Counted from the stretch's first letter, positions 13,576 to 17,198 are shown. The stretch: 64,000 bases of DNA from an uncultured Pseudomonadota bacterium (GCA_902771695.1 CACXXP010000008.1:1886-65885), one strand, 5' to 3'. The notes: generated from the letters alone by a model not told the origin. Made by a program: numbers and translations.

Positions 13576-13604
13576 TGGACAAAGCATACGATACATTATA
13601 GAAT
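13576..13604 (+). promoter_or_regulatory. Sigma-70-like promoter candidate for tRNA-Gly
   Basis: TGGACA - 17 nt - TAGAAT, ending 15 nt before the tRNA 5' end. Confidence 0.4.
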
Positions 13605-13619
13605 GTGAACGCTTTATCT

Positions 13620-13693
13620 GCGGGCGTGGTATAATGGCAGCACGAAAGCTTCCCAAGCTTTAGACGAGGGTTCGATTCCCTTCGCCCGCACCA
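13620..13693 (+). tRNA. tRNA-Gly (anticodon CCC)
   Basis: Cloverleaf GCGGGCG/CGCCCGC acceptor stem, anticodon loop TTCCCAA, GGTTCGATTCC T-arm, encoded CCA. Near-identical in layout to enterobacterial glyU. Confidence 0.92.
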
Positions 13694-13697
13694 AAAA
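13675..13697 (+). repeat. Direct repeat copy 1 (tRNA-Gly T-arm/acceptor 3' end plus 4 nt): ATTCCCTTCGCCCGCACCAAAAA
   Basis: Identical 23-mer recurs at 13835-13857. Confidence 0.95.
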
Positions 13698-13700
13698 TTT

Positions 13701-13725
13701 AATCGGCCTTGTGCCGATTTAATTT
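13701..13725 (+). terminator. Hairpin terminator after tRNA-Gly
   Basis: AATCGGC-CTTGT-GCCGATT followed by TAATTT. Confidence 0.45.
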
Positions 13726-13834
13726 ATGGTATGCGACGACGGAAGCGAACCCGATAGAGTTGCGCAGCAACAAAGGGTTTGGAACAAGCAAAGCGCAGTG
13801 AAAGGGGCCCATGAACGAAGTGAATGGGAATTAC

Positions 13835-13857
13835 ATTCCCTTCGCCCGCACCAAAAA
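13835..13857 (+). repeat. Direct repeat copy 2 of the tRNA-Gly 3' end (att-like)
   Basis: Exact 23-nt match to 13675-13697, but no tRNA 5' half precedes it. Confidence 0.95.
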
Positions 13858-13859
13858 CA

Positions 13860-13886
13860 AAACCGGCATTTGCCGGTTTAATTTTT
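13860..13886. terminator. Bidirectional hairpin terminator (ends the minus-strand HNH operon)
   Basis: AAACCGGC-ATTT-GCCGGTTT, followed by AATTTTT on plus and TTTTGTTTTT on minus. Confidence 0.6.
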
Positions 13887-13894
13887 GACATACA

Positions 13895-14485
13895 TTAGCG
13901 ATGAAAACTAAGACACCCATCACACCAACCATTCATACGTATATGATTGCGACGCGGTTCCTTTCTTTCATTACGTTTGCCAGACAACGTCAAACCACGG
14001 GGCTTGCCGGTTTTTTGTTTTTTTGTTCTTTCTGGTTGGATATTATATTTGGCTTTTAATTGTTGCAACATTACAGATTCAACGTGACAAAAGCACTCTT
14101 CCTTTATTTGCGATCCCTTTTCAACATTGCACGTTGTACACATTGGTGTCATATTTTTAATATCATCGGGGCCACCAATAGATTTTGCAAACACATGGTC
14201 CCATGAAAAGCACCTAAAATCTGTCAGTTCCCGCCCACATGACGAACATTTTGGTGGTTGTCCATGTGCCGCCAAGATACGATACAGATTTTTGATATCC
14301 CCAGGGGTTAATTGGTCTTTCAATACCATAATACTTGTCAAAATTCCTGCGACTTCTTGGGCGCATTTTTGTGGTTGATTTCGCACCACAGAAACATGAC
14401 TTATTATTTTAATATCCCTTGGGGTAAATTGATTTGTTAACAACCCTATATTTGTCAAAACATCGGTTATTTCTTCATCTGTCAT
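13895..14485 (-). CDS. HNH-motif endonuclease-like protein with a duplicated N-terminal ~35-aa unit and a basic tail (196 aa)
   Basis: CSSCGRELT...WDHVFAKSIGGPDDIKNMTPMCTTCNVEKG (CxxC...DH...N...CxxCN). Internal repeat LTNQFTPRDIK...QPQKC / LKDQLTPGDIK...QPPKC. Confidence 0.7.
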   Translation of the reverse strand: MTDEEITDVLTNIGLLTNQFTPRDIKIISHVSVVRNQPQKCAQEVAGILTSIMVLKDQLTPGDIKNLYRILAAHGQPPKCSSCGRELTDFRCFSWDHVFAKSIGGPDDIKNMTPMCTTCNVEKGSQIKEECFCHVESVMLQQLKAKYNIQPERTKKQKTGKPRGLTLSGKRNERKEPRRNHIRMNGWCDGCLSFHR

Positions 14486-14501
14486 AATATATGTCCCGTT
14501 T

Positions 14502-14750
14502 TTATTTTCTGTTTGCCAATTTAATCTGTTTTGCCTGCTCTTCCAATTCCAGCATACATTTCCAATATTTCCGCCACAAAGATTTAGTTGGATGATTCTT
14601 TTTTAATACACGCACATAATCATTAATGTCCGCATTATACGGAAACGTCTGGGATAGCACCTGAAAACGTTGAATCATTTCTTGCCAATCTTGATTAAGT
14701 TGGTCATTGCCGCCACTCTTGGAATCCACTATTGGATATTTTATCGCCAT
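14502..14750 (-). CDS. Hypothetical small protein (82 aa from MAIKYP)
   Basis: GGGGGAAAAT precedes the ATG at 14750; 11-nt gap to the upstream gene and 16-nt gap to the HNH gene. Confidence 0.5.
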   Translation of the reverse strand: MAIKYPIVDSKSGGNDQLNQDWQEMIQRFQVLSQTFPYNADINDYVRVLKKNHPTKSLWRKYWKCMLELEEQAKQIKLANRK

Positions 14751-14761
14751 ATTTTCCCCCA

Positions 14762-16024
14762 TTACCATGAACGACCGTTCCCACGGGTACCATTGCGTTG
14801 CCATGCACGCATTTCCGCAATTTTATTCTGTACTTCTTTGGTTGGATTTTTAATCACTGATTCCGCCCGGGCAATCAGTCGGTCCGCATCAAAACGCAGT
14901 GGGTTTATCTTGTCCAACAACCACAGTTGCATCCATGCAGGTTGATTTTTTATGTTTGCAATATACCACATATCACTTTTCAGATTTCGCAAATCATCAT
15001 ACATTTTTTGGACGACAACCGATGGCTTTTTTATTAAACTGTATGTTATATCTAAATCCCAATCTTGAATGTAACTATTCTCGGCAAATGCTGTTTGCAA
15101 TGCCAGCATCTGAATTGCATCATATTGAAACGGAATTGCCCCAATCGCATATGGTGCGTTTGTGACAGCACGTTCTTTGACCGCCTTGGATGGGGCCGGT
15201 TTATGCATGTGTGATATAGCAAAATCGCCGTTTGGTTCAATATCACGTTGGCTATGATGCGAAACAAATAATAATCTGAAGCGTTCCAAATCTTGGCCTG
15301 TCAAACAATTACTGTTTGTTTCCACAATATCCACAAATTTCGGTAAATCCCAGCCCGCAATTATACACCACCCGATGTTTTCCCATCGATTCAATATATC
15401 CTTTACGCGTGCCCTGGACAATGACAATTCACCTCTTATCAGGGCATCAACCTCCATGTCCGGGGTACGTTTTTCGGGGGTAATATCACTAATTTTCAGT
15501 TTACCTTGTCTCAGAGCTTCTTTTATAGTAGACTCTGATGGGTTGTTTACGAATTGCAGATTGTGTTTGGCATTACGACGTTTCAACACCAATTCTTGCA
15601 TTTTTTCACTTGGGTGTTCAATCATTGAAATCATGGACGGCATATAGTTCAGAACAACCATAATTTCTTCTTCTGTTAAAAACTGATTTACCTGATCTGA
15701 ACCCGCTTCCCGCATCTTTTCATACAACACAACCGACAGGTCTTGAAATTCCTGCATAAATTCTGGTTCGTCTTTTAATTGAATTGCAACCAACAGATGC
15801 AAACTAACGCGATCCGGTGCATAACGATTATAATGATTTTTGCTTATTGTTTTCTGGACAATATCGTTAAAATGCCGAAGGACCTTTTGTGTTGTGAAAT
15901 AATATCCAGCCTGAGTACCTTTTAATAAATGCATACATGCATCACATACATTTTTATACATAAAGTATTCTTGCTTGGTCGCAAAATTTTTTATCCTTAA
16001 TTCATTGGCTGCGTCACCGTCCAT
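14762..16024 (-). CDS. Hypothetical helical-repeat protein (420 aa from MDGDAAN)
   Basis: AAGGGG SD before the ATG at 16024. Recurring motif [IV]-x-[NH]-[PQ]-[STP]-x-x-x-[QIM] (IEHPSEKMQEL, VNNPSESTIKEAL, IKNQPAWMQLW, IKNPTKEVQNKI). Confidence 0.6.
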   Translation of the reverse strand: MDGDAANELRIKNFATKQEYFMYKNVCDACMHLLKGTQAGYYFTTQKVLRHFNDIVQKTISKNHYNRYAPDRVSLHLLVAIQLKDEPEFMQEFQDLSVVLYEKMREAGSDQVNQFLTEEEIMVVLNYMPSMISMIEHPSEKMQELVLKRRNAKHNLQFVNNPSESTIKEALRQGKLKISDITPEKRTPDMEVDALIRGELSLSRARVKDILNRWENIGWCIIAGWDLPKFVDIVETNSNCLTGQDLERFRLLFVSHHSQRDIEPNGDFAISHMHKPAPSKAVKERAVTNAPYAIGAIPFQYDAIQMLALQTAFAENSYIQDWDLDITYSLIKKPSVVVQKMYDDLRNLKSDMWYIANIKNQPAWMQLWLLDKINPLRFDADRLIARAESVIKNPTKEVQNKIAEMRAWQRNGTRGNGRSW

Positions 16025-16034
16025 AATTGACCCC

Positions 16035-17198
16035 TTATTTTGTTGGAATTTGCAATAATTGTTTTGGATATATAAGGTTTGGATTATCAATACTGTTGCG
16101 TTCTGCGATCATTGTGTACAGTGTTCCACGGCGCAAAAAGTTTTTTGCAATTACCCACAGACAATCACCACGACGTACAGTGTAAAATGTATCACTGTCG
16201 CCTGTGGTTTCTGGCATAATAAAATTATGATTTACCGTTGCAACCGTATGTCCAGAATCATCGTGCAAACGAACCGTTAAATTATATTCTGCGCCCGGTT
16301 TTAATTCACCGATATCGGCACCAACACCAAAACTTTTATAATCAGATACACGTGCATCACCAACATATTTATCATCTAATGATAATGACACACGAAAACG
16401 GGGCAATGCTTCGCCCGTCACAATGATACGACCGGTATCCAAATAATCTATTTTTGACACGGTCAAATCACCATCTTTTAATACAGATGGCGACTGCATA
16501 ACCTTGCTGCCTTCTTTGGTCATAAGCAATGACACAGAATTACGATAATCGGCATCAGATATATACAAGAATAATTTATCGGCCGATTTCATCGTTGGTT
16601 TAACACCCATCAATTCAATTGTATAATTACCAGGCGCAAGTTTTGGGGTATAAACAAATTCGCCGTTATTGTCAGTTCTTTCGGTTGCAACAATTTTATT
16701 GTTCACAACAATGGATATATTCTTGTTCGCCTGCCACCGACCGGCAATAACAACCAACCCATCATATTGAATGCGCGCAACATCAAATGTCGGTATGTTT
16801 GTCGGTTCAGAAATTTTTTTAACCGTGCCTTTGGACACGGTTTCAACAGGAACAGGTTTTGCGGCATTCAACACAACAATCTTTTGTGGTGCAGATGAAC
16901 GTGCAAAAACAATCCATATTGTCACCAGCAAAACAATAAATGCACACAAAATCGGGAACCAATAATCACGCAACACAGAACGATTATTGTTGTCATCACG
17001 ACTGCGCATGGTGCGTGTTTCGCGTGGTGTTTCTTGAACAGTATTGTTTTCCACAGAACTGTTACGGGCACGCAAAAAACGGCGTGTAAAGCTGCGCCGA
17101 CGGGCAAGCCAACTGTCCTGCTGTGCAATTGCATCTTCAATTAAAACATCGGTTGATCGTTTTGTTTTTCCCATAACGGCGGTATTATTGTTTGCCAT
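16035..17198 (-). CDS. LysM-domain membrane-anchored peptidoglycan-binding protein (387 aa)
   Basis: C-terminal LysM YTVRRGDCLWVIAKNF...NLIYPKQLLQIP. One N-terminal TM (WFPILCAFIVLLVTIWIVF). AAGGAGA SD before the ATG at 17198. Confidence 0.8.
   Translation of the reverse strand: MANNNTAVMGKTKRSTDVLIEDAIAQQDSWLARRRSFTRRFLRARNSSVENNTVQETPRETRTMRSRDDNNNRSVLRDYWFPILCAFIVLLVTIWIVFARSSAPQKIVVLNAAKPVPVETVSKGTVKKISEPTNIPTFDVARIQYDGLVVIAGRWQANKNISIVVNNKIVATERTDNNGEFVYTPKLAPGNYTIELMGVKPTMKSADKLFLYISDADYRNSVSLLMTKEGSKVMQSPSVLKDGDLTVSKIDYLDTGRIIVTGEALPRFRVSLSLDDKYVGDARVSDYKSFGVGADIGELKPGAEYNLTVRLHDDSGHTVATVNHNFIMPETTGDSDTFYTVRRGDCLWVIAKNFLRRGTLYTMIAERNSIDNPNLIYPKQLLQIPTK

Follow-up and report, generated by a model that had tools for sequence, protein, structure and literature searches.

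The locus analysed here raises the question of why the 3' end of a tRNA-Gly(CCC) gene is found twice, with 137 bp separating the two copies. The gene lies in a stretch of 64,000 nucleotides (nt), referred to as the window, which corresponds to contig C8:1886-65885 of a 0.97-Mb genome and whose sequence occurs in bovine gut metagenomes. The host genus is Candidatus Enterousia of the order Rs-D84, which are gut bacteria of the Alphaproteobacteria with reduced genomes (PMC12306168). The 23-mer ATTCCCTTCGCCCGCACCAAAAA was detected exactly twice, at 13675-13697 and at 13835-13857; no other match with three mismatches or fewer was found in the window, and 100 shuffles gave none. The first-pass annotation had explained this repeat either as the attachment-site (att) scar of an integrative element or as belonging to a small structured RNA, and the structured-RNA reading turned out to be better supported than the att-scar reading. 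The segment 13694-13853 is one member of a previously undescribed, genus-wide family of small non-coding cassettes of about 135-200 bp. Each unit consists of a hairpin and a structured body followed by a second copy of the final 19 nt of the tRNA, which is why the tRNA end appears twice.

The genome and its relatives were searched for the repeat and for the insert, and the insert was found to recur as a genus-wide family. A BLAST search against 40 relatives showed the same arrangement in many Enterousia species. The motif KGAAKNGAACCCGR of the 5' module, which follows the hairpin in each unit, was present in 105 of 201 genus genomes, whereas the reversed-pattern control gave about 10 matches. 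When the motif was combined with the adjoining hairpin P2 (GGKTYG), 97 of the 301 genomes of the order were matched and the control gave no match at all; one of the 97 genomes belongs to a sister genus and the rest are all Enterousia. Overall, the family was present in about 45% of the sampled Enterousia genomes, together with the one match in the sister genus, and two to four exact copies of the 19-mer were counted in 82 of the 201 genus genomes. In a pattern scan of all public genomes the matches outside Enterousia were swamping and at chance level. The suggestion that almost nothing remains between the repeats was not borne out, since the same architecture is present in about 100 species and its helices covary.

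The unit copies of the relatives are all located at tRNA 3' ends. At about 80 loci the module lies 47-55 nt 3' of a tRNA-Gly(CCC) or a tRNA-Trp(CCA) gene, and a second copy of the last 19 nt of that same tRNA follows 155-200 nt past the first. In the sister genus the host is tRNA-Gly(UCC), and the tail is always the local tRNA's own 19 nt. The T arm GAGGGTTCGATTCC is common to all host tRNAs; in the window genome the T arm GGGTTCGATTCC is restricted to tRNA-Gly(CCC) and tRNA-Trp(CCA). This genome has one full unit copy and one diverged solo copy.

Among 79 unique units the order of the parts was identical: the tRNA, a hairpin, the 5' module, a loop that may enclose an inner hairpin, GGGTTCG, a variable hairpin-rich insert of 50-100 nt and finally ATTCCCTTYGCCCGCACCA. 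The consensus of the 5' module, TGG..GYGGCG..GGAAKN GAACCC, is partly antisense to the 3' part of the tRNA, and a GAACCC/GGGTTC hairpin is present in every unit. The units fall into the subtypes A-short (n=16, including that of the window), A-mid, A-long, B, B2 and Trp.

The window copy follows this plan, with all parts on the plus strand. The tRNA-Gly(CCC) gene at 13620-13693 is intact, with the T arm GAGGG-TTCGATT-CCCTT, and was recognised by ARAGORN and by the Rfam tRNA model (63.2 bits). A promoter scan placed a sigma-70-like promoter, TGGACA-17-TAGAAT, at 13576-13604; a CTGGACA ... TATAAT-like pair lies 5' of the tRNA in relatives too, and this site is the sole promoter-like site upstream of the tRNA and the cassette. 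The first repeat copy, ATTCCCTTCGCCCGCACCA, comprises A58 to A76 of the tRNA (13675-13693; bounds set by the 79 repeat pairs in relatives). Hairpin 1 at 13701-13719 is terminator-like on both strands and belongs to the inserted unit, with one such hairpin per unit in arrays. The 5' module TGGT-AT-GCGACG-AC-GGAAG-CGAACCC (13727-13752) is an imperfect reverse complement of tRNA positions 51-76 and contributes the 5' strand to both the closing helix and hairpin P2. P2 (CGAACCC / GGGTTTG) spans 13746-13781 and encloses the inner hairpin GTTGC-GCA-GCAAC at 13759-13771. The variable insert of the A-short subtype (13782-13834), delimited in an alignment of the 16 A-short units, contains the conserved GTGAAAGGGG at 13798-13807, the hairpin P4 (CCCAT...ATGGG) at 13808-13828 and then AATTAC. 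The second repeat copy at 13835-13853 is an exact copy of tRNA A58-A76 that supplies the closing helix with its 3' strand; the exact identity extends to 13857. Hairpin 2 at 13860-13879 is terminator-like in both directions and common to the unit and a convergent HNH gene.

Several observations of the first-pass annotation were confirmed at this point. Each copy of the 23-mer is followed by a terminator-like hairpin, both hairpins ending TTTAATTT; the second copy is not preceded by a tRNA 5' half, as judged by ARAGORN and by reading of the sequence; and the G+C content of 13727-13834 is 51.9% compared to 41.1% for the window. The reported 51-codon open reading frame at 13726-13881 (plus strand) does exist, but it is not kept in the 15 closest homologous units and therefore is not a gene.

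The borders of the units were determined in the 79 repeat pairs. The biologically meaningful repeat in the relatives is 19 nt long, from A58 to A76, and A-rich trailers begin with the extra AAAA of the 23-mer. On the left, identity started at A58 in 55 pairs and one base earlier in 18; on the right, it ended exactly at the CCA in 35 pairs and a few A residues further in most others. In 15 of the pairs the identity continued for 30-120 nt, crossing the hairpin and entering the next 5' module. The tail copy matches the local tRNA including its lineage variants (C66T; G67A with C69T).

The comparison with relatives that had been proposed for defining an empty site was informative. Empty tRNA-Gly sites were found, showing a presence/absence polymorphism at the same tRNA, and in the window genome the tRNA-Trp site is empty, with secE following directly and no hairpin. 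These empty sites identify the unit as an insertion that includes the hairpin. Units in tandem are common and usually differ in subtype, and therefore are not simple recent duplications. Across species the units are 90-98% identical, whereas the flanks on both sides of the tRNA-unit block cannot be aligned, which points to strong selection or recent exchange. Within the species of the window the arrangement was constant in four independent DNA metagenomes, and no excision joints, empty-site joints or circular junctions were detected in these four data sets.

Single-sequence folds of nine units gave a recurring cloverleaf, composed of a closing helix between the 5' module and the tail, a GGAA:TTCC pairing, P2 and the arms of the insert. 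For subtype B, RNAalifold on 16 units yielded 39 pairs with 96.8% of the cells paired. Compensatory double changes were present in 13 of these pairs, compared to 7.0 ± 1.4 in shuffled alignments (0 of 500 reached the observed value). The covariation score was 0.239 versus 0.119 in shuffles, and structures slid by 1-3 columns scored 0.05 or less. In the A-short subtype the score was 0.086 versus 0.055 in shuffles (again 0 of 500), with the covariation located in the inner hairpin and in P4. Here, P2 and the inner hairpin were paired in 95.5% and 100% of the cells, respectively. The inner stem showed UA to CG covariation, with the variants GTCGC/GCGAC and GCCGC/GCGGC, and in the A-short alignment P4 showed changes between CG and UA and between AU, GU and GC. 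In the Trp subtype, double changes affected 8 pairs, and several U.G pairs were invariant.

The 5' module also tracks the tRNA at positions 66 and 67. The pairing GGCG:CGCC is replaced by GGCA:TGCC, and GGTG:CACT was seen as well. GGCA accompanied T66 in 6 of the 7 units of this class, compared to 2 of about 35 units with C66, and GGTG accompanied A67. In these alignments it is the position-specific covariation alone, and not the duplex energies, that argues for the predicted closing helix.

The fold is specific for one strand. In all three alignments the consensus fold was stronger on the tRNA strand than on the opposite strand (-41.8 versus -35.0, -28.1 versus -18.7 and -25.7 versus -22.1 kcal/mol), and the two alignments with a predicted consensus contained 92 G.U pairs as against 12 A.C pairs. 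A strain polymorphism at 13780 (T>C) turns a G.U pair of P2 into G-C. Compensatory changes above controls and strand asymmetry, both known from structured non-coding RNAs in general, were found. The strand-specific, covarying fold and its conserved G.U pairs argue that selection acts on one strand in the tRNA sense, for which an RNA is the simplest candidate. The Rfam scan gave no match to the insert of the window at E<=10 and none to five other unit types at E<=1, with just bona fide tRNAs scoring.

Expression was examined in metatranscriptome contigs, which carry no strand or end information. In a gut metatranscriptome a 247-nt contig runs from a tRNA-Gly across the hairpin into 140 nt of a related, A-long unit. 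The depth of that unit was 7-40, whereas the neighbouring coding DNA had a depth of 0. Four RNA runs examined for Trp-type units did not contain the organism that carries them. The expression evidence is suggestive. The small structured RNA considered in the first-pass annotation is supported by the covariation, by the strand asymmetry of the fold and by this contig of a related unit; for this exact locus the expression data are thin.

With moderate confidence, we read the units as a family of tRNA-tailed cassettes that encode a small RNA, co-transcribed with the tRNA by read-through and inserted by recombination at the tRNA 3' end. The RNA would be made from the tRNA strand, starting at the tRNA promoter and reading through a leaky hairpin 1, and would fold into a cloverleaf-like four-way structure. 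The partly antisense 5' module would pair with the tRNA-identical tail to form a closing helix ending in ...ACCA, and P2 and one or two variable arms would branch off between the positions equivalent to tRNA 57 and 58. The tail probably confers a tRNA-type 3' end for trimming and stability. As DNA, the same tail may serve as homology or as att core for the insertion, duplication and interspecies exchange of cassettes. Insertion could occur by site-specific recombination at the 19-nt core with an island-type integrase acting in trans. Alternatively, it could occur by homologous exchange with tRNA 1-57 and the tail 58-76 as arms, for which the cassette would need no enzyme of its own. Transcription of the window copy, the CCA processing and the mechanism of insertion are the parts of this reading that we infer.

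Several results weigh against the co-transcribed RNA. The window unit alone was no more stable than its shuffles (z = -1.1), and its lowest-energy fold pairs GUGAAAGGGG with the tail instead of forming the closing helix of the family. The closing helix of the A-short units was 50.7% paired, and its alignment is poor because the 5' module occurs in two registers. The energies of the duplex between 5' module and tail were neither clearly better than those of composition-matched shuffles in the Gly units nor specific for the own tRNA, both tails being rich in C and the modules rich in G. Hairpin 1 has the appearance of an efficient terminator, and read-through may therefore be rare. The one contig of the window from an RNA library covers 13809-14041, i.e. 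the 3' third of the unit, and may stem from contaminating DNA or from the 3' end of the HNH mRNA. Finally, recombination of DNA accounts more readily for the perfect match between the tail and the local tRNA than any function of the RNA does.

Integrase-bearing islands were found at the same tRNA in relatives. In G090 (C2:37400-55400, L262) a 15.1-kb island lies between tRNA-Gly(CCC) and a displaced end, GGTCCCCTTCGCCCGCACCA, and a tyrosine integrase of 526 amino acids (aa) with a DUF6538 N-terminus is encoded directly 3' of the tRNA. An A-type unit is present distal to this island. In G305 (C50:6400-10682, L202) a 3.4-kb island with a HipA toxin has the same right end as that of G090 and classical arm repeats, and the same array of small cassettes, about 390 bp long, is present on both flanks. 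These two islands show that the end of tRNA-Gly(CCC) is a real attachment site in the genus. The island ends and the cassettes have nothing in common. The window genome encodes integrases at C1, C8 and C11 and a fragment at C14, and none of them is at the cassette locus; the one at C11 is a homologue of the G090 integrase with 30% identity. As in a tRNA-integrating island, a repeat of the tRNA 3' end is found at the far junction and the gene is regenerated; unlike in such an island, no integrase or cargo gene lies between the repeats.

Since integrase islands use the same tRNA end in relatives, the att interpretation is half right. It is right about the site, for the tRNA-Gly(CCC) 3' end serves as an attachment site in the genus and the repeat is junction-like, and it is wrong about the content, because the insert is not debris. 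The other proposal, that the neighbouring HNH operon is the bounded island, failed, as no third copy of the repeat was found in the window with five mismatches or fewer.

The islands also bear on another explanation, in which the cassette is a recombination substrate of folded single-stranded DNA, comparable to the attC of integrons or the folded attP of CTX phage. The 5' module and the tail would fold into a hairpin that mimics the double-stranded end of the tRNA gene, the attB of the island integrases. A tyrosine recombinase would insert and excise the cassette in trans, and any RNA would be incidental. Arrays contain up to four units, at least five unrelated types (A, B/B2, C with about 95 nt, D and a 50-nt mini type) are bounded by the same 19-nt core, and the edge at 57|58 is sharp, all of which agrees with such a mechanism. 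The same holds for the integrase islands at this tRNA end, the integrase homologue in the window genome and the array on both sides of the G305 island. The strand-specific fold fits one strand of DNA equally well. However, no recombinase is linked to the cassettes, and the attR of the islands differs in its left edge (C61) and in its classical arm repeats, which the cassettes lack. The four DNA metagenomes contained no circular junctions or excision joints, and the many conserved G.U pairs and the RNA contig are accounted for more simply by an RNA. To our knowledge, integron integrases are not known in Alphaproteobacteria, which counts against this explanation as well. We regard it as unlikely.

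An inert scar, i.e. a functionless remnant of an integrase island after an internal deletion between attL and attR, is strongly disfavoured, and we give it a low probability. Real islands at this tRNA in relatives and truncated 5' modules at the distal ends of several arrays would fit with it, and so would the presumable deletion bias of small genomes. About 100 species and three different tRNAs are involved, however, and independent deletions would not have produced identical end points, an identical arrangement of the parts and covarying helices in all of them. Moreover, conservation of the units greatly exceeds that of the non-coding DNA around them, and the island ends with their arm repeats and integrase promoter share nothing with the cassette.

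A decaying tandem duplicate of tRNA-Gly with an insertion in its T loop is very improbable. The unit does contain, in the correct order, sequences corresponding to tRNA 47/49-57 (…GAGGGTTCG) and to 58-76, with the split at 57|58, but its 5' part does not copy the 5' half of the tRNA; it is antisense to the 3' part, most clearly so in the Trp units, where GGGCAGAGGAAGCGAACCC is found as compared to the reverse complement GGGCAGAAGGAATCGAACCC. The unit has no D arm and no anticodon arm, it is not scored by ARAGORN or the Rfam tRNA models, the same design occurs at tRNA-Trp, and its strong conservation argues against decay. A cis-acting leader or attenuator of the downstream gene or of tRNA maturation, working by alternative pairings of the tRNA tail, the antisense module and the second tail, would suit the Trp units between the tRNA and secE-nusG and the mutually exclusive tail pairings of subtype A (GGAA, GCGAAAGGG and GGGAAT), but is scarcely credible, as the genes 3' of tRNA-Gly vary by species and are often convergent, like the minus-strand HNH gene here, and tandem arrays would make no sense for a leader.

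Two further candidates were rejected. Because the tail of the unit carries a tRNA 3' end, a reduced or permuted transfer-messenger RNA (tmRNA) was considered; the genome has a normal two-piece alpha-type tmRNA (170 bits) and SmpB elsewhere. This permuted tmRNA gene is located just past the window (G000:C8:69794-70134), encodes the tag ANDNRLLAMAA and was found by the Rfam model and missed by ARAGORN. Reverse transcription primed by the tRNA, with the module as primer-binding site, was rejected because reverse transcriptase (RT) genes are patchy and missing from unit-carrying genomes: they were present in 24 of 61 genomes, and in none of the window genome and two other unit carriers. The RT genes of Enterousia encode proteins of about 330-380 aa and about 500-550 aa, lie at other loci of these genomes of about 1 Mb, and are probably of the retron or defence types.

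The cassettes were compared with known systems. Like the islands of the Islander type, which are integrated at tRNA genes by a tyrosine integrase (PMC4383910), the cassette leaves the tRNA intact and a displaced copy of the 3' end marks the far junction. In both cases tandem occupants are possible and the presence varies among relatives. In contrast to these islands, the occupant is only 137-180 bp long with no integrase or other gene, has a conserved covarying fold, contains an antisense copy of the repeat, and has a repeat cut exactly from A58 to CCA. With the attC cassettes of integrons the units share ordered arrays of small unrelated cassettes, structure that is kept over sequence, and a strand-specific fold, and they too may be said to end in an imperfect palindrome. 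Here, however, the palindrome spans the whole unit and is split by an insert of 50-100 nt, and the cassettes are anchored at a tRNA gene, have no open reading frame and occur in a taxon from which integrons are not known. No GTTRRRY core box is contained in ATTCCCTTCGCCCGCACCA, no recombinase gene adjoins the tRNA of the window, and no IntI, attI or Pc was found or linked, IntI not having been searched for specifically.

Small RNAs that resemble or are linked to tRNAs include tmRNA, the bacterial Y-RNA-like YrlA and small RNAs from the 3' external spacers of tRNAs (3'ETS-leuZ). The cassette shares with them an acceptor-type terminus derived from a tRNA, and it probably stems from a tRNA transcript. 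It differs in having no analogue of a T loop or D loop and no Rfam match, and its tail is an exact copy of the neighbouring tRNA and not an independent mimic. The Rickettsia palindromic elements of reduced alphaproteobacterial genomes and miniature inverted-repeat transposable elements are non-coding, hairpin-forming sequences of about 100-200 bp that are patchily distributed between species. The cassettes are similar in size, in their non-coding hairpins and in patchiness. Unlike these elements they are not dispersed but occupy one class of site per genome, the tRNA 3' ends, and they have no terminal inverted repeats with a target duplication of a few bp. In retroviruses and long-terminal-repeat retrotransposons the primer-binding site pairs with the 3' end of one particular host tRNA. 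The 5' module is likewise complementary to the 3' end of the host tRNA, and the copied segment starts at 58. However, no RT is linked to the cassettes, and retroelements contain nothing equivalent to the cassettes' sense copy of the tRNA end.

A number of additional observations were made at this and related loci. The convergent group of three genes at 13895-16090 on the minus strand ends at hairpin 2 and encodes an HNH protein of 196 aa and proteins of 100 aa and 442 aa, the latter two with no Pfam match. The group is missing from this place in G010 and G024, where rpsP directly follows the tRNA-Gly array. The tRNA-Gly gene is inverted relative to gdh in G012 as compared to the window; the neighbours differ widely and the block of tRNA and cassette occurs in non-homologous contexts. 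The cargo of the G090 island comprises two C-5 cytosine methylases, a restriction enzyme of the NgoFVII type, a Rep-like protein and a 1601-aa protein with no Pfam match.

Other, unrelated cassette families bounded by the same 19-mer were located at G124:C1:150662-151024, G004:C8:23078-23234 (L247) and G019:C6 (L255). A 50-nt type has a 69-bp period, a type of about 95 nt occurs up to three times in a row with a spacing of 115 bp, and a further type bounded by the 19-mer starts with CCAATTTTC. A unit of about 130 nt starting with CACCGAAGCG is repeated three times with no tRNA end. The solo copy in the window genome is a diverged A-type unit outside the window (G000:C16:17990-18175, minus strand), positioned between two genes with no adjacent tRNA. 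Its tail reads AATCCCGTGCTTCCGCCA, which we take to resemble the 3' end of a selenocysteine-type tRNA. ARAGORN found no tRNA of this type in the window genome, and the solo copy may be the only remnant of a lost selC.

It is conceivable, though we advance this only tentatively, that the units constitute a tRNA-anchored cassette system of folded RNAs with a borrowed tRNA tail and its antisense copy. They would be kept in exchangeable arrays behind the tRNA gene, be transcribed from its promoter and spread between species with the universally conserved tRNA sequence as a recombination handle. The tail might then act as a substrate or decoy for enzymes of the tRNA 3' end, among them the CCA enzyme, synthetases, processing nucleases or toxins directed at the acceptor end. 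For annotation, tRNA-end repeats of this kind should not be read as the boundaries of a missing island. If the co-transcribed RNA is real, the cassettes would represent a new RNA family absent from Rfam, with a well-supported fold, a tail identical to the neighbouring tRNA and an antisense closure. They would also be a new kind of occupant of tRNA attachment sites, in which the insertion logic of islands acts on arrayed units of 70-200 bp that contain no genes. For bacteria with genomes of about 1 Mb and little recognised mobile DNA, they would then offer a possible route of gene flow, with the tRNA sequence as portable homology.
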